Assembly (NCBI GenBank): GCA_964464115.1
Contig: CAYXEW010000002.1
Coordinates: 488-64,487, forward strand
DNA: 64,000 nt
Direction: 5' to 3'
From: an uncultured Verrucomicrobiota bacterium
GTDB taxonomy: Bacteria; Verrucomicrobiota; Kiritimatiellia; CAYTQP01; CAYXEW01
The notes under the pieces were generated by a model. That model ran no database searches and was not told the DNA's origin. It saw only the letters and a list, made by a program, of their open reading frames with translations. This document shows, one piece after another, positions 42,706 to 59,537 of the stretch; positions within the stretch are counted from its first letter, which is position 1; every line of letters starts with the position of its first letter. The position numbers and the translations under genes are program-made.

Positions 42706-43914
42706 CTATTCGACGATCTCGGTTACGCGACCGGCTCCAACCGTGCGACCGCCTTCACGAATAGCAAAACGCATGAATTGCTCCATGGCGATCGGTGTGA
42801 TCAGTTGTACATCCACGGCTATATTGTCACCCGGCATGACCATTTCCACACCTTCGGGCAATGTAATATCACCCGTCACATCCGTCGTTCGGAAGTAGAA
42901 CTGAGGGCGATACCCTTTGAAGAATGGCGTGTGGCGGCCGCCTTCTTCTTTGCTCAACACGTATACTTCAGCTTTAAACTTGGTGTGCGGTGTGATCGAA
43001 CCCGGCTTGGCCAGCACCTGCCCGCGCTCGACATCTTCTTTCTTGATACCGCGCAGTAGGCAGCCAATATTATCGCCAGCTTGACCCTGATCCAGTAGCT
43101 TGCGGAACATTTCCACGCCTGTCACTGTAGTCTTGACCGTATCTTTCAAACCGACAATTTCGATTTCCTCGCCAACTTTCACAATACCGCGCTCAACTCG
43201 ACCAGTCACCACCGTGCCACGACCCTCAATGGAAAAGACGTCTTCAATCGGCATCAGGAAAGGCTTGTCTGTTTCACGTTCCGGCTCCGGAATGTAGGAG
43301 TCCAGCGCGTCCATTAATTCCTGTATGCACTTGGCATCTTCATGATCCGGTGCGGGCGCTTGAATCGCCTTGAGGGCAGAACCGCGAATGACCGGCGTAT
43401 CGTCTCCGGGATACTCATATTTGCTAAGCAGCTCACGCACTTCAAGTTCTACGAGATCCAGCAACTCCGGATCATCGACCGTGTCACATTTATTCAGAAA
43501 CACGACAACACGCGGAACGCCCACCTGGCGGGCGAGCAGAATATGCTCACGCGTCTGCGGCATCGGACCGTCCGATGCACTCACGACGAGAATAGCGCCG
43601 TCCATCTGAGCTGCACCCGTAATCATGTTCTTCACATAGTCCGCGTGACCGGGACAGTCGACGTGAGCATAATGGCGAGCGTCAGACTCGTACTCGACGT
43701 GCGATGTCGCAATCGTCAAAATCTTTGTAGCATCACGGCGACCCTGGGATTCAGAGGCCTTGGCAACTTCATCGTATGCGACATAATGGGCCATACCCTT
43801 GTCGCCCTGCACCTTTGTAATCGATGCCGTCAGCGTTGTTTTGCCGTGATCAACGTGACCAATCGTACCTACGTTTACATGTGGTTTTGTTCTTTCGAAT
43901 TTATCCTTCGCCAT
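42706..43914 (-). CDS. tuf: Elongation factor Tu
   Basis: 402 aa with GHVDHGKTT. Confidence 0.97.
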
Positions 43915-53015: not shown

Positions 53016-53950
53016 AATCGATACTGCAGGTAAAGTCGCGTCTGGTGCCTTGGATCAGGCTTTAAAGACAGGTCGGCATCTACTGCCTGCAAGCTGAGTG
53101 ACAGCCTGTCTCGATTGTAACGATGGGCGGCATCTATGCCACCATATATACTGCCGGAGTACCAGGTAAGCTCAAAAAAGGTAATAACAGAGAAGGCACC
53201 CCACTGCTCCTCTTCGGCCGTACTGATCATCCCGTAGATAAAGATACCGTTTAGAATCATAGAGCGAATGCCATTGGCATATTCTCCGGAATAGAAATAG
53301 CCAAGACCGGGGATGAGCCCCAAAAGTCCCCCTACAGCCGGTTTCTTATCGCGTCCCTCACGGTATTGAATAATGGCATCACGGGCACGACGGCCGGCAG
53401 CTGATTCGGGCAAGGACTTCAAAGCCTTCTCCGTCTTTCCACTGCGCATGAAGGATCCTGCAGTCCTGAGAGCTATATATTGAGATAGCTCATCGGAGTC
53501 CGGCTCAACGCTTTCATAATAGAACCGGGCAGACTCATAATCGTTCAGCTCTAACGCTATATCCCCACGAAGCAGCATGGCGGCGTTTTCAATACTCACC
53601 GATGCATCTTCTGCACCATCGAGCATGGATTGAGCCCTACCATAATCTTTATCCATGTAATAGTTATAACCCGCCATCCACAAATACGAACTCTTACCTT
53701 CTTCATCAGTGGCATCGACGGCCATCCGGCGGAATTCCAGTGCAGATAAATTAAAATCACCTTCTTCCGACAGCGACCAGGCTAGCTCATTTTGACTGTC
53801 TGCCACGACCGAAATACTGCAACATATCCAAAACAAGGAGAGCAAAATATAACCCATAGCATGGTGAGAAGGCAGGGTTGTCGGGCACAGACAGCCACGA
53901 CGTTTTGAACCAATGCAAACTACCCGATTTCGCAAAAACTTATTCATCAT
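53012..53950 (-). CDS. Hypothetical envelope protein with TPR-like periplasmic region, hydrophobic Gly/Tyr-rich segment (GLLGLIPGLGYFYSG) and C-terminal ...LYLQYRF
   Basis: ATGA overlaps with both neighbours. Terminal aromatic residue is OMP-like. Confidence 0.5.
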   Translation of the reverse strand: MMNKFLRNRVVCIGSKRRGCLCPTTLPSHHAMGYILLSLFWICCSISVVADSQNELAWSLSEEGDFNLSALEFRRMAVDATDEEGKSSYLWMAGYNYYMDKDYGRAQSMLDGAEDASVSIENAAMLLRGDIALELNDYESARFYYESVEPDSDELSQYIALRTAGSFMRSGKTEKALKSLPESAAGRRARDAIIQYREGRDKKPAVGGLLGLIPGLGYFYSGEYANGIRSMILNGIFIYGMISTAEEEQWGAFSVITFFELTWYSGSIYGGIDAAHRYNRDRLSLSLQAVDADLSLKPDPRHQTRLYLQYRF

Positions 53951-54777
53951 CGTTTCCTCATCCAGAAATCATGATCTTCAACGAGGTCGAGAACACGCTC
54001 TCTCCCGCCCACTATGACAACTTTCTTCTTTTGCTGCACGACGGAGGGTTCCCGGTAGAAGCGATCAGCCTGCATAGCAAAACCGAGCAATCCATGTTTT
54101 TTGCAGGCTTGCATGAAATACTCTGAACAACTGGGCTCGCAGGAGCAGCGCATGGCAATGGCCGAGGAAATCTGTGATCGATAAAAGGTCACAATCCACT
54201 TTGCCACAGGACGCCCAACCGAAAGCCCCTTGCGCTGATGAATGCGTGACTCCGCAAACAGCTCGCCATACCAGAAGTCGCGAGTTGAATTCACCTGCAT
54301 AAAGGTGTCAGCATGGTCTTGCTTGAGTGCCGGATATTCTTCCGTCAAAAGGAATAGACTGCATGCACTATGTAAAAAAAGATCCTGGTTTTGAGCATGT
54401 TTGAATGCCCGCTCGAAGGCCCCGAATGCATCAGCTATCCGACCCCTCCTCCACATTTCACGACCGTAGAGGTAAGCGGCCATCGACATCTCCTCTGGTC
54501 GGTCCGTTTGTGATGCAAGATTGATTAGTGTTGCAAGGGCATGATCCATTGAACGGCCGAGCATCAACCTAGCTTCAGCCCTGATCAGCAGGGCCTTTGG
54601 GCTGTTTACACCCGCTTGAATCATGCGGGAGCTCTCCAGCAGACAGGCTTCCCAGTCTCCCTCTTCATACAGTTCAAGTAACAGCTCTTCAGCAACCGCA
54701 TAAGGCGACAAAAAAAGGATTCCGGCCATTACAGCCGGAATCCTTTTTCTAATCAACTTAGCAACAGTGGAAATCAA
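53947..54777 (-). CDS. Fusion protein: signal peptide + TPR-like domain + C-terminal YidD-like domain (membrane protein insertion efficiency factor fold)
   Basis: C-terminal YRSQISSAIAMRCSCEPSCSEYFMQACKKHGLLGFAMQADRFYR aligns to the YidD core (Y..IS....CRF.P[ST]CS.Y...A....G...G). Confidence 0.6.
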   Translation of the reverse strand: MISTVAKLIRKRIPAVMAGILFLSPYAVAEELLLELYEEGDWEACLLESSRMIQAGVNSPKALLIRAEARLMLGRSMDHALATLINLASQTDRPEEMSMAAYLYGREMWRRGRIADAFGAFERAFKHAQNQDLFLHSACSLFLLTEEYPALKQDHADTFMQVNSTRDFWYGELFAESRIHQRKGLSVGRPVAKWIVTFYRSQISSAIAMRCSCEPSCSEYFMQACKKHGLLGFAMQADRFYREPSVVQQKKKVVIVGGRERVLDLVEDHDFWMRKR

Positions 54778-55067
54778 TAGTATGATGCACCGTATTTTTC
54801 TGCGTAGTCGGCAGACGTCATGCCGTCGTATCCTTCAACACCTGTAATAATGGCAAACACAATATTTACGTAGGGAACCAGCATAACCCATTCACGCCAG
54901 TGGATTTCTTTGCCCTCATTATAATCGCCGGCAGCGCGAACGCCAAAACAGCAACCAGAAATAAGACCCATAATTCCGCCACGACCTGAACCCTTGGCTT
55001 CAGCAACCGGAGCAACAACCAGTGTCAACATTACGGCCACCATCAACAGTGCTACAATTTTCTTCAT
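54774..55067 (-). CDS. Small secreted/membrane protein (signal peptide + 2 hydrophobic segments, CC pair)
   Basis: 97 aa, coupled by ATGA overlap to the YidD-fusion gene. Confidence 0.45.
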   Translation of the reverse strand: MKKIVALLMVAVMLTLVVAPVAEAKGSGRGGIMGLISGCCFGVRAAGDYNEGKEIHWREWVMLVPYVNIVFAIITGVEGYDGMTSADYAEKYGASYY

Positions 55068-55163
55068 ACTCTACCCTCCATATTTAGGTTTGCACTACTT
55101 CGTAATCCTAGTAAACAGATCATTTAATATCAAATAAAGATATGCATTATTTTTACCAACAGC

Positions 55164-55937
55164 TCACTCATATATTTCCTTAAAGGTCTTCACATAGTCC
55201 ACCCCTTTGAGGAAATGATCAGCGATGAACAAGCCTTCCGCAATCGGCTCATTTACGGTCAGATCACTAACCCTCAGCGTTTCACTGCCATCTTCTTTAC
55301 CTATCAGAATCTGTGCATCATGCTTTAAAGGCATCCACAAACCGGACATGATCTCTTTGTACTCTGAATAATCATACCTTGCCTGCATGCGACCCTGCGC
55401 ATCTCCTTCATAGTAGAGAATAGAGGATAGCCTGTTACGCTCATCTGTATTGACTTCTGCGAAAAAACCGTCCCCTTTATAACCGAATGACAGGCCGCCG
55501 GCATCTTTTGGTTTGAGCAACTCTTCTTCCAAACCCTTCAACTTGAGCAGATGATCCATCGGGGTACCCGGCACGCGGCGCAATTCCGCGATCTGCTCCC
55601 CGCTCAACTGCTCAATAGGCCTGGAAAAACCTTTGGGTTCGCCTGTAATATAATAGTAAAAATGTTTGCCATCGGCAATGATCCGCCTCTTTAGAGGTGC
55701 AATATTGTCCACATGTATAAAGTCTCCCCGCTTCCAGTAGATGCGACTCAGGCGGCGCACCTTTTGGTCCCCCACTTCCGAAACCCGACGTATTTTACAG
55801 GACAATGATTCGATGCGGTTATAATTTACGAGCAATCGGTCAATGGCCGTCTCTGCATGAACAGAAATGCAACATAACAAGAGGAGTAAAACGAAACTCC
55901 GAACGGCCTTATTCATTTTCAACAAGTTGTTGCTCAT
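55164..55937 (-). CDS. LolA/LolB-fold outer-membrane lipoprotein carrier-like protein
   Basis: Signal peptide plus RIIADGKHFYYYI-type LolA-like beta-barrel pattern. Start trimmed to MSNNLL; the ORF begins at GTG 55967. Confidence 0.5.
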   Translation of the reverse strand: MSNNLLKMNKAVRSFVLLLLLCCISVHAETAIDRLLVNYNRIESLSCKIRRVSEVGDQKVRRLSRIYWKRGDFIHVDNIAPLKRRIIADGKHFYYYITGEPKGFSRPIEQLSGEQIAELRRVPGTPMDHLLKLKGLEEELLKPKDAGGLSFGYKGDGFFAEVNTDERNRLSSILYYEGDAQGRMQARYDYSEYKEIMSGLWMPLKHDAQILIGKEDGSETLRVSDLTVNEPIAEGLFIADHFLKGVDYVKTFKEIYE

Positions 55938-56129
55938 TTTGCACCCCCAATCTGCACACTCTTTCACCTGTTAACTCAATATATTGCTGTTTTATATCAT
56001 CACTGCAAAAGGCTGACCAGATTAATTCACAGAACCTGCCCATAGTTGACTGCATTCTTTGTGAAACATTAGCTGTTTGCCGGTCAGAAAACTTAAGACT
56101 TTGGCCCAAAGCGGAACTTGTCAACGAAC

Positions 56130-56152
56130 GGGTCGGACCTGTGCAGTTTGTT
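56130..56152. repeat. Copy of GGGTCGGACCTGTGCA(G/A)TTTGTT repeat (island boundary/regulatory motif)
   Basis: 22/23 identical to 58027..58049. Confidence 0.7.
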
Positions 56153-56206
56153 AATTGCTGGGTGTTCATCACGTAGCGTCACTTGACTGGTTAGCATTTT
56201 TTAGTT

Positions 56207-56539
56207 TTAATCGAATTCACTGGAGTTGAACGGGGCCGGTTCAATTTGATGATTAGTCAGAAATCTCATGGGTTGTAGTGAGTGATAATCATCTAGAAAT
56301 TTCTTTGCCATATTATTTAGAGGTTGAGGATTTGAGATTCTCCGAATTTTCCAAATGAACTCATCTCTTAAGTTTTCAATAAACTCGGAGTAGTCCTCTG
56401 ATCCAACATCTAAACTGTACGCTCCACCAATCTGCTTGCACCTCTCAACAAGGTTCATTCCTATTGAAGTTAAGACAAGATCCGAACCTTGGTTCAGTAC
56501 GATGTAATCACGTTCAGCTTTGGTGAATATTATTTTCAT
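56207..56539 (-). CDS. Hypothetical small protein in a low-GC (about 40%) segment
   Basis: Start at MKIIFTKAE. GC well below the neighbours. Confidence 0.45.
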   Translation of the reverse strand: MKIIFTKAERDYIVLNQGSDLVLTSIGMNLVERCKQIGGAYSLDVGSEDYSEFIENLRDEFIWKIRRISNPQPLNNMAKKFLDDYHSLQPMRFLTNHQIEPAPFNSSEFD

Positions 56540-56693
56540 TTTATCTACTGCTAATGCCGCGCTCACCAGTTTGACTGGACGATAGCAGACGCAGTCTGCG
56601 GGAGGCCAGACAAATCTGGTGAAGTGGTCTTGATCTGCGGCACGCAGAGCGAGATCACGAACGCAGTGAGCGCGGCAATGGAGCGCCAGCGGT

Positions 56694-56723
56694 GAAAGCG
56701 GGGTTGAAAGCGGGGGTCGGACC
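56694..56723. repeat. Tandem GAAAGCGGGG units ending in GGTCGGACC, abutting the stop codon of the beta-propeller gene
   Basis: Shares the AAGCGGGGGTCGGACC core with 57995..58036. Confidence 0.7.
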
Positions 56724-57914
56724 TCACGGCTTCGTCAACACAATTCTGTAGACGCGCTCGGTTTCACTCGAAGGCTCGGGGCGTCCCGGGCCGCCCAGGT
56801 CGGCCCATGTGCAAACCACGGAACCGGCGCGTACGGTATCGGCATGGGCCCAGGGTCCGAGAAGGTCGTCCGCCCATTCAATGTCATAGGTCGCGCCCAC
56901 AATGCCTGTCCAACTGATGGCCGTCGTCCGCGAAACCGACACCACAGCGAGCGGGCGATGGTTCCGGTAGATGTTTCCAAACGATCCGGCGGCCCAGACA
57001 TCACCCGGACCTGAACATACCAGACCGTACACCGTGTTGATGTTGGTCGAAAACGTCACATGCGCGCCATCGTAGAAGTACAGGCCTCGATCAACACCGT
57101 TATACCCAAGCCAGACGTTCTCCCCGTTCCAGGAATCCACGATGGCCACGTTTATTGTGTTGGTGCATCCATCAATCGGAATGGTGCTCCACGTCTCGCC
57201 GTTGAAATGGGCCAAGAACCCCTCATCGCCTGCAATCCACACGTCACACACGCTCCTGGCGTGCACGTCGCGCAGATATCGGGAAGGACTCATTTTAAAT
57301 ACCGCTTGCGTGCTCCAGGCGCTGCCGTCATAAAAGTACACAACATTGCTGCCGCTCGGAGGGCTCCCCACGGCCCAGATGTGTTGGGAATCAAGTCCGT
57401 CAATAGCGCTCATTATAGCGGAACCCACGTCGCATTCAATCGCCCAGTCCAGCCCGCCATTGGTCGATCGGATGATATTTCCTGACATGGCGCACAGCCA
57501 CACATTACTCGGGTCGGAAGCATACACATCGTAGACATACGTGCCCACCGCACTCGGCAAATCGCTGAGCTTGGACCAACTACCGGCATCCCGGAAAAAC
57601 ACCGAGTTGGTCGTCGACACAGAACTGCGTCCAACCGTCCAGACATGGTCGACGTCAAGTGCGTAAGCGCCCCGCAGCTCTCCCTGGTCTCCATCGTAAA
57701 AGGCCTGATACTCCTTTGCCCAGGAGGTTCCATCGAACCGATAAATCGCGCCACTCGAAGAATTCCCCCCCATGAACCACACATTGCTCGCGTCCGCAGC
57801 GGCCGATCCCTGCGGATTTAAGTTCGGAATCGTATCAAACAGCTCCCACTCCCCAGCAGAAACCATACACGCAAAAACCCCCGCAACAAACAACAGCATA
57901 AACAACTTTTTCAT
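56724..57914 (-). CDS. Secreted beta-propeller repeat protein (BNR/Ycf48-like repeats)
   Basis: Signal peptide plus about 7 repeats of the (N/D)VW(A/L)xGxxGxI...DGxxW pattern. GC about 58%. Confidence 0.55.
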   Translation of the reverse strand: MKKLFMLLFVAGVFACMVSAGEWELFDTIPNLNPQGSAAADASNVWFMGGNSSSGAIYRFDGTSWAKEYQAFYDGDQGELRGAYALDVDHVWTVGRSSVSTTNSVFFRDAGSWSKLSDLPSAVGTYVYDVYASDPSNVWLCAMSGNIIRSTNGGLDWAIECDVGSAIMSAIDGLDSQHIWAVGSPPSGSNVVYFYDGSAWSTQAVFKMSPSRYLRDVHARSVCDVWIAGDEGFLAHFNGETWSTIPIDGCTNTINVAIVDSWNGENVWLGYNGVDRGLYFYDGAHVTFSTNINTVYGLVCSGPGDVWAAGSFGNIYRNHRPLAVVSVSRTTAISWTGIVGATYDIEWADDLLGPWAHADTVRAGSVVCTWADLGGPGRPEPSSETERVYRIVLTKP

Positions 57915-57938
57915 GTGCGCTCCTTTTTTTGTTTCAGC

Positions 57939-57967
57939 ATTCTATGTGCACAACGGGCGGATGTCAA
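57939..57967 (-). promoter_or_regulatory. Sigma-70-type promoter (TTGACA-17-TAGAAT) for the beta-propeller gene
   Basis: Perfect -35, 17-nt spacer and 5/6 -10 on the minus strand, about 25-50 nt upstream of the ATG. Confidence 0.55.
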
Positions 57968-57994
57968 CGCGAAAACAAGTCCGGCAAATTTGAA

Positions 57995-58049
57995 AAGCGG
58001 GGGTAAGCGGGGGTCGTGAAAAGCGGGGGTCGGACCTGTGCAATTTGTT
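57995..58049. repeat. Three tandem AAGCGGGGGT units followed by CGGACCTGTGCAATTTGTT
   Basis: Units at 57995, 58005 and 58021. Shares its core with 56694..56723 and 56130..56152. Confidence 0.75.
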
Positions 58050-58241
58050 GATAGGTAATAGTTTAGACCAAAACTAGGGGTGTATAGCAACTTAGGGGTA
58101 TGTTTTTCAGCTAAAAAAAGTGTCTTTAAGGAATTTGTCAGGCCAACTACATAGGTCCAAACCCGTTTAACCCGTTGAACCGCGTTTAACACCGTTTACT
58201 TTTAACCACTGGTCAAAGCCGATATTTTTTTGTATCATCGT

Positions 58242-58261
58242 AAAATAATCTAGATTATTTT
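58242..58261. promoter_or_regulatory. Perfect 20-bp palindrome AAAATAATCTAGATTATTTT (putative operator) 59 nt upstream of the AAA+ ATPase gene
   Basis: Flanked by CATCGTAAAA(T/C)AAT direct repeats. Confidence 0.5.
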
Positions 58262-58319
58262 ATAAAACATCGTAAAACAATTCTTGATTTTTTGAGTTCT
58301 ACGGTGCATTTTCTGTGAC

Positions 58320-59537
58320 ATGAAACGGATCTATGAGGAGCTTCTGCGGGAGCATTTTTCTACCGAACGGCAGATGGCCTTCGTGGCCGGCCCGCGTCAG
58401 GTCGGGAAGTCCACCCTGATTGACAGCTTGTGCGGGGAGAACGATTTTTCATTGAACTGGGATTGTCCGAACGATCGGCGCGCAATTCTGAAGGGATCTG
58501 ATTTCATTATTGAGCAGTACGGATTCACCGACTTGGGGGCTTCCCGGTCACGGCGGCTGATCGCGTTTGATGAAATTCATAAATTCCGGCAATGGAAAAA
58601 TTTTCTGAAAGGCTTTTTTGATGCCTGCGAGGACACTGCGTCGGTTCTGGTGACCGGCCGTGCGCGGCTCAATATCTATAAACGGGGCGGGGACAGCCTG
58701 ATGGGGCGCTATTTTCTGTATCGCATGCATCCGCTTTCAGTTGGAGAACTGGTGAACCGTCCGTACGATCCCTGTATTGTCCGGGCTCCCGGAGCGATAT
58801 CAGACGCGGAGTTTGACGCACTTTATCGCTTCGGCGGCTTTCCGGAGCCGTTTCTCCGGGGGACGGATCGCTTCTACAACCGTTGGATCGGATTGCGCAG
58901 CGAGCAGATGTTCCGGGAGGACTTGCGCGATTTGACCCGCGTTCAGGAGATTGATCAGCTCATGACCCTTTCGCAGATTATGCTCTCACAGGCAGGAGCC
59001 ATGGTCAACTACAGCGCATTGGCCAATGAAGTCTGTGTTTCGGTCGATACCATTCGCCGCTGGATGACGCTGCTGGAATCCATCTACTTTTCATTTCGGA
59101 TACGACCCTGGTTCCGGAATGTTTCCAAATCGTTGCGCAAGCAGCCGAAGGTCTATCCGTGGGACTGGAGTCCGGTCAAAGACGAGGGAGCCCGAATTGA
59201 GAGCTTTACGGCATCCCATCTCTTCAAAGCGGTCCATTGGTGGAACGATCTGGGGCTGGGAAAGTTTGAGCTTCATTTCATTCGCGATACAGCGCAACAC
59301 GAGGTCGATTTTCTGATATCGAAAGACGCTGAACCCTGGATGATAGTTGAGGTCAAAAAATCCCCAAAAGAACCGATCAACCTGGCATTGAAACATTTTG
59401 CGCAGGTTCTGAATGTACCGCATGCCTTTCAGGCGGTGATGGAAATGGACGCCGTGGATGCCGACTGTTTTGAGGCATCCCGTCCCGGCACACCATTTCG
59501 GGTTCCGCTTCGGACCTTACTGTCTCAACTTGTTTAA
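58320..59537 (+). CDS. AAA+ ATPase of the COG1373 / AAA_14 + DUF4143 family
   Basis: N-terminal GPRQVGKST Walker A, about 400 aa, typical architecture of the uncharacterised solitary-ATPase family. Confidence 0.7.
   Translation: MKRIYEELLREHFSTERQMAFVAGPRQVGKSTLIDSLCGENDFSLNWDCPNDRRAILKGSDFIIEQYGFTDLGASRSRRLIAFDEIHKFRQWKNFLKGFFDACEDTASVLVTGRARLNIYKRGGDSLMGRYFLYRMHPLSVGELVNRPYDPCIVRAPGAISDAEFDALYRFGGFPEPFLRGTDRFYNRWIGLRSEQMFREDLRDLTRVQEIDQLMTLSQIMLSQAGAMVNYSALANEVCVSVDTIRRWMTLLESIYFSFRIRPWFRNVSKSLRKQPKVYPWDWSPVKDEGARIESFTASHLFKAVHWWNDLGLGKFELHFIRDTAQHEVDFLISKDAEPWMIVEVKKSPKEPINLALKHFAQVLNVPHAFQAVMEMDAVDADCFEASRPGTPFRVPLRTLLSQLV

Follow-up and report, generated by a model that had tools for sequence, protein, structure and literature searches.

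The attC site has two complementary end boxes, R'' (RYYYAAC) and R' (GTTRRRY), and acts as a single-stranded hairpin with an unpaired spacer, extrahelical bases and a variable loop. The Xer/dif-type site is 28 bp long, with a 6-bp spacer between two inverted arms of 11 bp each. The operator of GntR/FadR-type regulators is a 15–17-bp palindrome, TGGTCnGACCA, with A/T-rich flanks. Elements that a tyrosine or serine recombinase has inserted, also those in tandem arrays at a single attB, are bordered by attL and attR, whose core is made of two inverted binding sites around a 6–8-bp overlap region. Two or more attC sites that are clustered with no intI nearby constitute a CALIN (Cury et al. 2016, PMC4889954). 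Finally, the E. coli LldR box AAnTGGTCnGACCAnTT is centred on the palindrome GGTC-N-GACC (PMC10272880), which is also present within the fadL FadR probe AGCTGGTCCGACCTATACT (PMC4259882).

The locus considered here is an islet between the conserved envelope (LolA-like/YidD) operon and the DUF4143 ATPase gene, in a window of 64 kb, that is, the whole stretch of DNA that was analysed. The islet encodes only two proteins, one of 110 aa and a beta-propeller, and has three intergenic gaps, each containing one repeat block (B1, B2 and B3). The features are listed in Table 1.

Table 1. Features of the islet and of its two borders (window coordinates)
Feature	Position	Strand	Description
LolA-like gene	55164–55967	-	First gene of the conserved envelope operon; left islet border; weak NCBIfam lolA match
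Octamer CGTTGACA	56119–56126	-	Just downstream of B1; the same octamer is the -35 region downstream of B3, at 57962–57969
Block B1	56130–56155		GGGTCGGACCTGTGCAGTTTGTTAAT; core GGGTCGGACCT, then right arm GTGCAGTTTGTTAAT; without tandem units
Small-ORF cassette module	56152–56554	-	Leader TTAGCAGTAGATAAAATG, 110-aa ORF, 5' half of an integron-type attC
Small ORF	56207–56539	-	110 aa; GC 37.8%
GC-rich hairpin element	56555–56677		Perfect 12-bp closing stem TGCCGCGCTCAC / GTGAGCGCGGCA; two or three internal hairpins
Block B2	56693–56724		Tandem units TGAAAGCGGGGT and TGAAAGCGGGGGT that lead into the core GGTCGGACCT / GGTCGGACC; without right arm
Secreted beta-propeller gene	56724–57914	-	396 aa, full length; signal peptide; C-terminal domain ending ...RVYRIVLTKP
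Promoter TTGACA-17-TAGAAT of the propeller gene	57939–57967	-	Sigma-70 type; 11 of 12 consensus positions
Block B3	57991–58052		Three AAGCGGGGGT units, then core, then right arm TGTGCAATTTGTTGAT
AAA_14/DUF4143 ATPase gene	58320–59537	+	Pfam match; right islet border; transcribed away from the islet

The three related blocks claimed in the earlier note are real, with slightly changed coordinates, and so is the palindromic core GGTC-G-GACC in each of them: the same 11 bp are found in all three. Within the 64-kb window the 11-bp core has three copies, all inside 2 kb, and none elsewhere. All copies have the same orientation, which is that of the genes; thus they are direct repeats, with no inverted one among them. 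In every copy the palindrome is 9 bp long with a 1-nt centre, and the symmetry stops there. The sequence GGTCGGACC occurs three times in the window against 0.36 expected, and three occurrences were reached in none of 100 shuffles. The 23-mer formed by the core and the right arm occurs twice (0 expected), and the 18-mer AAAGCGGGGGTCGGACCT twice at up to three mismatches (0.07 expected). The 10-mer unit alone is unremarkable, with eight matches in the window at up to one mismatch against 4.2 expected; five of the eight fall within the blocks. The units are irregularly spaced, at 10, 16 and 12 bp.

The arms are mosaic. B3 is the sole copy with both arms. It has the right arm in common with B1 (22 of 23 bases over the 23-mer, 24 of 26 over an extended register) and the left arm in common with B2 (18 of 18 bases, plus tandem AAAGCGGGGGT units). 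The exact stretches in common are 16 and 18 bp. Each pairwise arm match is far beyond chance. The B1–B3 similarity outside the core, in which the octamer of Table 1 recurs, is marginal (p about 0.04). Neither the core nor the 18-mer or the 23-mer recurs in the other 62 kb of the window, even at three mismatches. No second locus with the blocks was found in 596 Gb of genomes, JGI metagenomes and IMG/VR, where the 18-mer gave scattered single matches at the chance level; the 23-mer had no match in IMG/VR.

By their folding, the blocks are not attC sites. Neither they nor their extended regions contain a single-strand hairpin, the folding being no better than that of shuffles (z from +0.2 to +2.0). 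On the minus strand the B3 region reads TATCAAC ... G|TTGACA, with 6 of 7 positions complementary and both boxes off consensus; in B1 just 24 nt separate AATTAAC from G|TTGACA, and B2 lacks an AAC box. The fold of B3 constrained to pair AAC with GTT has an energy of -5.8 kcal/mol, and 53% of the 2030 AAC...GTT candidates of the window fold at least as well. Nor are the blocks Xer/dif-type sites, as in IMEX or pdif modules, since there is no dyad of 11-bp inverted arms and 6-bp spacer and the symmetry covers only 9 bp. An intrinsic terminator has a stable GC-rich hairpin and then a T-run, downstream of a gene of the same strand, and the blocks are not of this kind either. The intrinsic terminator scan flagged B1 and B3 on the plus strand, but the stems have only 5–6 pairs including G-T, are no better than those of shuffles, and no plus-strand gene ends upstream of either block.

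The small ORF belongs to a module of the integron type, with a GC content of 37%. Copies of this module are present in three other metagenome contigs at 84–93% nucleotide identity; the matches run from 56554 down to 56250 in L031, 56179 in L032 and 56194 in L033, with nothing outside the module. The upstream boundary, G|TTAGCAG, is identical in all copies, whereas the flanks differ: one contig has a gene for a GDSL-type hydrolase, and the rest have other small ORFs. The small ORF has homologues of 72–92% identity. The L032 copy has a hairpin of attC geometry after the ORF, with an unpaired spacer, a bulged L stem and the complementary boxes R'' TGCTAAC and R' GTTAGCT; its folding z is -2.3 and -3.0, and it served as the control site. 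Since the same 5' boundary recurs in three unrelated contigs, and an attC-geometry hairpin in one of them, the small ORF is a real and conserved mobile unit, that is, a portable cassette.

In the window, the attC half-site retains R'' TGCTAAC at 56190–56196 (plus strand) and L'' AAGTGACGC, while the 3' half and the partner R' are missing. The sequence following the ORF is homologous to the attC family down to about position 56151 (p < 0.0005). The homology ends where B1 begins, and thus the attC is cut short at B1. The join lies inside the attC variable loop, near a shared ATTAA, and does not use the canonical G|TT crossover. None of the copies in L031, L032 and L033 has a B block.

The propeller gene has weak Pfam matches (Rax2, PSII_BNR). 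Its best homologue is only 36% identical; a homologue of 391 aa has the same architecture end to end. The stop codon (tca at 56724–56726 of the plus strand) directly adjoins GGTCGGACC of B2, the first base of the codon being the one after GGTCGGACC, in agreement with the earlier note. The near-consensus sigma-70 promoter proposed there beside B3 was also recovered, on the minus strand at 57967–57939. Judged by its homologues and composition, the propeller gene is an orphan rich in GC, served by a strong predicted promoter of its own.

The contrast in composition of the two genes was confirmed: relative to the 29 other genes of the window (mean GC 51.0 ± 1.7%), they are outliers in opposite directions, the small ORF with 37.8% (z = -7.9) and the propeller gene with 56.8% (z = +3.5). 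However, B2 is not the compositional boundary. The switch lies some 140 bp further left, at 56554/56555, and the GC-rich stretch passes B2 by approximately 140–170 bp; the module boundary and B2 do not coincide. The GC-rich hairpin element, 123 nt with 60% GC, occupies the space between B2 and the boundary of the small-ORF cassette. Its folding z is -3.0 as RNA and, as DNA, -3.9 for the minus strand and -5.6 for the plus strand. It has no Rfam match.

The ATPase at the right border also matches the PADLOC candidate defence family PDC-S01 (E = 3.5e-48), and its gene may itself be accessory. In the long contigs of two relatives, and in two short contigs matching them, folB is situated directly upstream of the LolA-like gene, in place of the islet; in one further relative an unannotated ORF takes this position. 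By gene order, synteny breaks at the islet position, the relatives compared having about 45% identity in the LolA-like protein and being too distant to give an empty site. The window has no tRNA or tmRNA target, and no integrase, transposase or other recombinase domain was found among the window ORFs scanned against Pfam.

Compared with a CALIN, the islet has a similar layout. The single-gene modules are co-oriented, each is followed by a repeat, one per intergenic gap, there is no nearby integrase, the cargo consists of orphan or unknown genes, and the small-ORF module is of the integron type, the window retaining the R'' and L'' boxes of attC. On the other hand, the blocks are not attC, with no hairpin and the AAC...GTT fold of B3 at the background level, the propeller module has its own strong predicted promoter, unusual for integron cassettes, and the join of attC to B1 is off the G|TT crossover. 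The islet is not a CALIN, as only one truncated attC-family site is recognisable and no intI was found among the window ORFs scanned against Pfam.

The likeness to attL/attR elements lies in the blocks themselves. They are direct repeats with a common core around DNA of foreign composition, their arms are exchanged as if the logic attB × attP → attL + attR had been applied twice, and the short tandem repeats beside the core recall arm-type binding sites. The differences are that no integrase or excisionase was found in the islet or among the window ORFs scanned against Pfam, so that no recombinase gene is seen inside or beside the element, that the elements would be only about 0.6 and 1.3 kb long, that there is no tRNA or tmRNA target, and that the block core is a 9-bp palindrome rather than a pair of inverted binding sites around an overlap region.

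We tentatively interpret the blocks as att-type junction repeats that remained after small circular gene cassettes had been inserted step by step into one chromosomal hotspot, and assign this reading a probability of about 45%. The hotspot would be located between the envelope operon and the gene of the DUF4143 ATPase. The arms were read on the minus strand, to which all three genes belong, and the blocks may then be written as R-core-L for B3, y-core-L for B2 and R-core-x for B1, where R stands for AACAAAYTGCACA, core for GGTCCGACC and L for a set of ACCCCCGCTT units. This arrangement would result if an original site R-core-x underwent two conservative recombinations in succession, both at the common 11-bp core. 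In the first, a circle with the promoter and the propeller gene and with the site y-core-L would integrate, producing B3 and the hybrid site y-core-x. In the second, another circle with the site R-core-L, carrying the GC-rich hairpin and the truncated integron-type cassette, would integrate into y-core-x, producing B2 and B1. The recombinase would have acted in trans or would have been lost since, and at present the sites are probably inert. The observations themselves are the repeats with their mosaic arms, their location at module boundaries, the foreign composition of the two genes and the portability of the small-ORF cassette; circular intermediates, the sequence of the two insertions and a dedicated recombinase are what we infer. 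The arms are mosaic around an identical core, the pattern expected from two circles recombining successively at a common core. They follow an order that is consistent with a circle integrating at the core and is the reverse of that produced by insertion into a full site with target duplication. The putative elements have no terminal inverted repeats.

Several observations are unfavourable for step-wise insertion. No recombinase is seen among the window ORFs scanned against Pfam, the patterns tried gave no second locus with the blocks in genome, metagenome and viral collections, and the other copies of the small-ORF cassette have no B block. The architecture of known recombinase sites is absent, as the blocks have a 9-bp palindrome with a 1-nt centre and no hairpin, and B2 is no clean compositional boundary. 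Moreover, the site of the second circle must resemble B3, which fits a family of like sites but is not independent evidence.

Some of these observations also favour another scenario. Here illegitimate or short-homology recombination, along with replication slippage in a G-rich tract, would have left the blocks as inert scars, with no dedicated recombinase and no present function, the core being a microhomology where foreign fragments chanced to join. This scenario accounts for the lack of a recombinase among the window ORFs scanned and of other copies in the collections searched, for the unit number and spacing that vary as after slippage, for the attC–B1 join in the attC variable loop near the shared ATTAA, off the G|TT crossover, and for the mismatch between the boundary 56554/56555 and B2. 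We nevertheless consider it unlikely. It would be much coincidence for unguided microhomology to make three joins of one orientation, with reciprocal arms, at exactly the same palindromic core of 11 bp, and the perfect retention of the core suggests recent events or constraint.

The earlier note had offered two explanations of the blocks, transcription-factor binding sites and recombination sites delimiting a cassette. In the former case the blocks, multiplied by duplication along with the sequence around them, would be operator or activator sites through which a dimeric winged-helix regulator (GntR/FadR type) co-regulates three minus-strand units, namely the propeller gene, the small ORF and the envelope operon. 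The GGTC-N-GACC core is indeed common to FadR/LldR-type operators, it is perfectly conserved over 11 bp while the arms vary, and 114–176 bp separate each core from the start codon of the minus-strand gene downstream of it. Relative to the predicted transcription start of TTGACA-17-TAGAAT, the B3 units span approximately -61 to -98, and the core is near -100; activator sites can occupy this zone. However, only eight core positions match the FadR/LldR boxes, and the flanking T...A and AA/TT do not; for GGTCGGACC and the LldR box, 9 of 14 specified positions agree, the core matching and the flanks not. The palindrome is limited to 9 bp in every copy, the spacing of the units is irregular (10, 16, 12 bp), and B2 abuts a stop codon, upstream of the 123-nt hairpin, without a recognisable promoter. 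No GntR-family gene was found among the window ORFs scanned against Pfam. Finally, factor sites do not need pairwise identities of long non-palindromic arms (18 and 23 bp), and a recombination history would still be required. Operator function is a serious rival explanation of the blocks, if an unlikely one.

The recombination reading is better supported than the transcription-factor one, because mosaic arms around an identical core are not expected for independent factor sites. The mosaic arms, the portability of one of the bracketed genes and the presence of folB at the islet position in relatives speak for recombination sites; that these delimit one cassette does not agree with at least three modules and with B2 not being the compositional boundary.

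It is very unlikely that the blocks belong to a REP/REPIN or MITE-like family of short repeats that is dispersed through the genome and clustered here by chance. REP/REPIN elements form hairpins and are present as numerous dispersed copies, frequently in inverted pairs. Like REP elements, they are short GC-rich repeats at gene ends, and a REP-like family, GGGTCGGACCTCGGTAAG, containing the same 11-mer was observed in an unrelated Gammaproteobacteria MAG (L007), with five copies in 3.5 kb, at gene ends, partly as inverted pairs. However, the flanks of that family are unrelated to those of the blocks, none of the blocks has hairpin potential, and all three copies are direct, with no inverted pairs. 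In the other 62 kb there is no core, 18-mer or 23-mer, even at three mismatches; a generic REP family, considered in the earlier note, is thus not what the 64-kb window contains, all three copies being in one 2-kb stretch.

Least credible is a metagenome mis-assembly that joined fragments of different genomes at short common k-mers: the source is a MAG contig, its segments differ sharply in GC, and independent Logan contigs of run SRR7048222, matching both islet flanks at 99.97–100% identity, have their ends at 55846 and 58947 and leave the islet itself uncovered, but the exact stretches in common, of only 16 and 18 bp, are shorter than the usual assembler k-mers, which makes a chimeric join at the repeats unlikely, the repeats coincide neither with the composition switch nor with the ends of the Logan contigs, and the propeller ORF, the promoter and the cassette leader are intact and sensibly arranged.

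If step-wise insertion is the correct reading, the locus is an insertion hotspot and mostly ordinary, as small cassettes are known to insert step by step. Among described recombination sites, none matches the repeat itself. It is a long shot that the blocks are the sites of an undescribed cassette system with a trans-acting recombinase. If so, each of these sites would have G-rich tandem arm repeats beside a palindromic core of 11 bp, GGGTCGGACCT, and, unlike attC, would act as double-stranded DNA without a hairpin. Such a system would capture genes with their own promoter, and even fragments of integron cassettes, at a fixed chromosomal hotspot, and its host would be a deep-branching, Verrucomicrobia-related lineage.

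The islet is punctuated by three GC-rich repeat blocks, B1, B2 and B3, one in each of its three intergenic gaps and all in the same orientation. They are indeed related, as the earlier note had claimed: the 11-mer GGGTCGGACCT is common to the three, and the palindromic core GGTC-G-GACC that the note ascribed to every block lies inside this 11-mer in each of them. In the 64-kb window GGTCGGACC has three copies (0.36 expected), none of them outside the blocks; the 23-mer formed by the core and the right arm occurs twice versus zero expected, and the 18-mer formed by the left arm and the core also occurs twice, even at up to three mismatches (0.07 expected). The arms form a mosaic. Arm R is common to B1 and B3 (22 of 23 bases identical), and arm L to B2 and B3 (an exact 18-mer plus the tandem units); the similarity of the left side of B1 and the right side of B2 to the third copy is not beyond chance. 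A derivation of B1 from B3 by internal deletion was considered and set aside, its support being only marginal (p about 0.04).

On the minus strand, with x and y denoting the unshared arms, the order is as follows. The ATPase gene, transcribed away from the islet, is followed by an AT-rich region, B3' (R-core-L), a promoter and the propeller gene. Then come B2' (y-core-L), 16 nucleotides and a GC-rich hairpin element, and finally the small-ORF module, B1' (R-core-x), CGTTGACA... and the LolA-like/YidD envelope operon. The y arm of B2' is formed by the 3'-terminal part of the propeller coding sequence, and the last base of B2 directly precedes the stop codon, so that the block abuts this codon as described before.

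Positions of the features in and around the islet
Feature	Position	Description
Envelope operon	53947-55967	LolA-like to YidD-domain genes
Block B1	56130-56155	GGGTCGGACCTGTGCAGTTTGTTAAT
Small-ORF module	56554 to about 56152	minus strand
Small ORF	56207-56539	110 aa
GC-rich hairpin element	56555-56677	123 nt; perfect 12-bp closing stem; two or three internal hairpins
Block B2	56693-56724	TGAAAGCGGGGT, then TGAAAGCGGGGGT, continuing into GGTCGGACCT
Propeller gene	56724-57914	
Propeller promoter	57967-57939	minus strand; TTGACA-17-TAGAAT
Block B3	57991-58052	three AAGCGGGGGT units, core, TGTGCAATTTGTTGAT
Tandem array	58160-58198	AACCCGTTT AACCCGTTG AACCGCGTTT AACACCGTTT
Promoter-like sequence	58210-58238	TGGTCA-17-TATCAT
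Palindrome	58241-58262	TAAAATAATCTAGATTATTTTA; perfect, 22 bp
DUF4143 ATPase gene (AAA_14)	58320-59537	

The propeller gene is full length: a 391-aa homologue aligns with its product over the whole length, the C-terminal ...YRxV domain included. By eye, the sequence of the protein shows a signal peptide at the N-terminus, and none of its homologues exceeds 36% identity. The near-consensus sigma70 promoter proposed earlier is present and is the propeller's own. The contrast in composition was found as well, the GC content being 37.8% for the small ORF (z = -7.9) and 56.8% for the propeller gene (z = +3.5) relative to the 29 other genes of the window (51.0 +/- 1.7%). However, B2 is not the boundary: the switch is actually at 56554/56555, the GC-rich tract extending beyond the propeller stop codon and across B2 and the hairpin element as far as 56555.

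The hairpin element lies in the 3' region of the propeller gene, and its end coincides exactly with the boundary of the small-ORF cassette. Its folding is strong for either strand as DNA (z = -3.9 and -5.6) and also as RNA (z = -3.0); it has no match in Rfam and no second copy in the window. Since the AAC/GTT boxes are absent, we do not call it the canonical attC site of a propeller cassette; moreover, the perfect 12-bp stem is situated directly at the junction.

The small ORF encodes a member of a conserved family of proteins of roughly 90-115 residues, with homologues of 72-92% identity, more distant ones, and invariant residues E9, D20, T24, G27 and K64. Its AlphaFold model is confident (pLDDT 87), with a predicted alpha/beta fold that has no match in PDB at E < 1; comparison of the protein with Pfam, NCBIfam, PHROGs and PADLOC yielded nothing. 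Members of the family occupy cassette arrays of the integron type. Close copies on three metagenome contigs, L031, L032 and L033, are 84%, 90% and 93% identical to the window at the nucleotide level, and the match is limited to the interval from 56554 down to 56250, 56179 and 56194, respectively, the flanks differing from the window and among themselves. On all three contigs the homology starts at one identical base, ...G/TTAGCAGTAGATAAAATG, with A/TTAGCAG in the window (the slash marks the junction). Downstream of the L032 ORF lies TGCTAAC-AAATC-AAGTGAGCC ... GGCTCCTT-TCAGAC-G/TTAGCTG, and after it the next small ORF; when folded, this site shows an R stem of 6 bp, a spacer that stays unpaired and an L stem in which one base is bulged (z = -2.3 and -3.0). 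L033 and L031 carry sites of this family upstream of the ORF. Such an arrangement is the one by which PMC4889954 defines integron gene cassettes and attC sites. No integrase is visible on these short contigs. Thus, the small ORF is a portable cassette.

In the window, the region 3' of the small ORF retains the R'' box (TGCTAAC), the spacer, the L'' box and the start of the loop of this attC family, to about 56151 (p < 0.0005). The homology ends where the R arm of B1 starts, and therefore the cassette is truncated within its attC site and directly abuts B1. None of the copies in L031-L033 is accompanied by a B block. The attC-family 18-mer has one chance match in viral contigs, within a coding region, and neither the islet DNA nor the small protein matches plasmids. 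One module of the islet derives from an integron-type cassette.

The operon that consists of the LolA-like gene, between one and three ORFs of some 95 aa, the YidD-domain fusion and an ORF of about 300 aa is conserved between the window and the loci L010, L012 and L014 of relatives. The folB gene is directly upstream of the LolA-like gene on long contigs of two relatives, with LolA-like proteins 40-46% identical (one of them labelled Verrucomicrobia), and on two short contigs matching them; a further relative has the same downstream operon and an unannotated ORF upstream of the LolA-like gene. In the genome considered here folB does not occupy this position: conservation extends through the operon as far as the LolA-like gene, where the islet starts. 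The break of synteny coincides with B1, although the relatives are too distant to serve as an empty site. The distant relatives have no ATPase, HydF or B-like motif near the LolA-like gene, and as they lack such an ATPase gene beside the envelope operon, the DUF4143 ATPase may itself be a part of the variable region. This ATPase has a match to PDC-S01, a candidate defence family of PADLOC (E = 3.5e-48). The organism belongs to a very isolated lineage: at 90% identity, EF-Tu (42706-43914) and all other proteins checked form singleton clusters, and apart from the contig the organism is traced only in the SRA run SRR7048222, whose same-strain Logan contigs end at 55846 and 58947, short of the islet.

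Two further features were observed upstream of the ATPase gene. The AT-rich region (35% GC) contains four AACCCGTTT-like units in tandem, recurring about every 10 bp, which look like iterons or an array of binding sites. About 60 bp upstream of the start codon, just downstream of the promoter-like sequence, there is a perfect palindrome within the direct repeat CATCGTAAAA(T/C)AAT; it is probably an operator.

The blocks themselves do not fold. The z-scores of single-strand folding are positive for both DNA and RNA, that is, the blocks are less structured than shuffled sequence, which rules out a REP hairpin, a folded site of the attC type and a real terminator. On the plus strand, B1 and B3 were flagged by the terminator scan, but the stems are weak and no plus-strand gene ends upstream. 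Likewise, an attC-like reading of B3 is geometrically possible (TATCAAC...G/TTGACA, with an inner stem of 9 bp), but its fold energy is unremarkable, 53% of the 2030 AAC...GTT candidates in the window folding at least as well. As the blocks fail the attC structure test and only one truncated attC-family site is present, the islet does not belong to the integron/CALIN class as this is defined, CALIN being a cluster of attC sites lacking an integrase. Nor is it a classical integrative element, because both an integrase and a tRNA target are absent: no integrase, transposase or recombinase was found among the 28 window ORFs scanned against Pfam, and there is no tRNA or tmRNA at the islet, the only tRNAs of the window, tRNA-Trp and tRNA-Thr, being distant. 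An Rfam search of 55800-58400 at E <= 5 gave one chance snoRNA match and nothing else. The surrounding genes are housekeeping ones (a ribosomal protein/RNA polymerase cluster, ack/pta, HydF and others). A transposon with target-site duplication was rejected as well, as terminal inverted repeats are absent and the order of the arms is the reverse of that expected for insertion into a full site.

This order, core-L ... insert ... R-core, suggests how the islet could have been assembled. Target-duplicating insertion into a full site would give R-core-insert-core-L. The observed order is what would result if a circle with the site R-core-L recombined, at the core, with a y-core-x site already in place, and the same logic applied twice to a single ancestral site R-core-x, the present form of B1, would generate the whole arrangement. 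At the first step, a circle with the promoter, the propeller gene and the site y-core-L would integrate, producing B3 and y-core-x; at the second, a circle with the site R-core-L, the hairpin element and the truncated cassette would integrate into y-core-x, producing B2 and B1. Such a course would correspond to conservative site-specific recombination with its attB x attP logic, or to a cassette array with all sites of one type. Recent insertions would agree with the 18/18 identity of B2 to B3 and with a GC content that is unameliorated in both genes; the recombinase is inferred, not observed. A 9-bp palindrome centred on 1 nt does not resemble the core sites known for tyrosine recombinases. 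We assign a probability of about 45% to such step-wise site-specific insertion of circles at the common core as the explanation of the islet, which would then be a direct-repeat-bounded insertion of genes, step by step, at a hotspot. In function, it resembles a cassette array in miniature or att sites arranged in tandem.

Alternatively, the blocks could be operators of the FadR or LldR type. The LldR box AAnTGGTCnGACCAnTT and a FadR site at fadL both have GGTCnGACC at their centre (PMC10272880, PMC4259882), and each core is situated 114-176 bp upstream of a minus-strand start codon. However, the match is limited to the core (9 of 14 positions), the symmetry ends at 9 bp, the spacing of the units is irregular, and there is no regulator at hand. 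Operators thus seem unlikely, and the long arms shared pairwise would in any case require a history of recombination. Neither are we inclined to consider the blocks inert scars of microhomology joining and slippage. Scars would agree with the absence of a recombinase and of other copies, and with the non-canonical join between attC and B1, but three joins at one exact core with reciprocally exchanged arms would take much coincidence. A cassette platform with a double-stranded palindromic-core site and a recombinase acting in trans is quite improbable.

Still less probable is a dispersed REP-like family, of which the remaining 62 kb of the window contain no copies. The exact 18-mer has seven scattered single matches in 596 Gb of species-representative genomes (the source genome is outside this set), 13 in JGI metagenomes and one, by chance, in IMG/VR; these numbers do not exceed the chance expectation, several matches are one sequence recovered repeatedly, and none in the three collections has flanks like those in the window. 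The 23-mer has no match in IMG/VR. A REP/REPIN-like family, GGGTCGGACCTCGGTAAG / GGGGTCGGACCTCGGTAAG, is present in a gammaproteobacterial MAG (JAHEAZ010000033.1, 1-3600), with five copies in 3.5 kb; they sit at gene ends, one overlapping the 3' end of a gene, and some form inverted pairs 19 nt apart. As this family contains the 11-mer, the latter can belong to a REP family elsewhere, but the flanks are unrelated, nothing else is shared, and the window copies behave differently. Finally, mis-assembly is scarcely credible, as the exact shared stretches of 16 and 18 bp are shorter than the k-mers that assemblers usually employ, and the ORFs and signals form a coherent whole.

The exact junction sequences GGGTCGGACCT, AAAGCGGGGGTCGGACCT and GGGTCGGACCTGTGCARTTTGTT can be searched for in the SRR7048222 reads and in the rest of the MAG. 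If the blocks are operators or inert scars, this is an ordinary small accessory islet, whereas if they are sites of a new recombinase, they would define a cassette platform of a new kind. Should the step-wise model be true, the locus is a compact natural record of single-gene addition beside an essential operon in a poorly sampled lineage, and an integron-type cassette can become fixed outside any integron, which bears on the question of the origin of integrase-less cassette clusters (PMC4889954).
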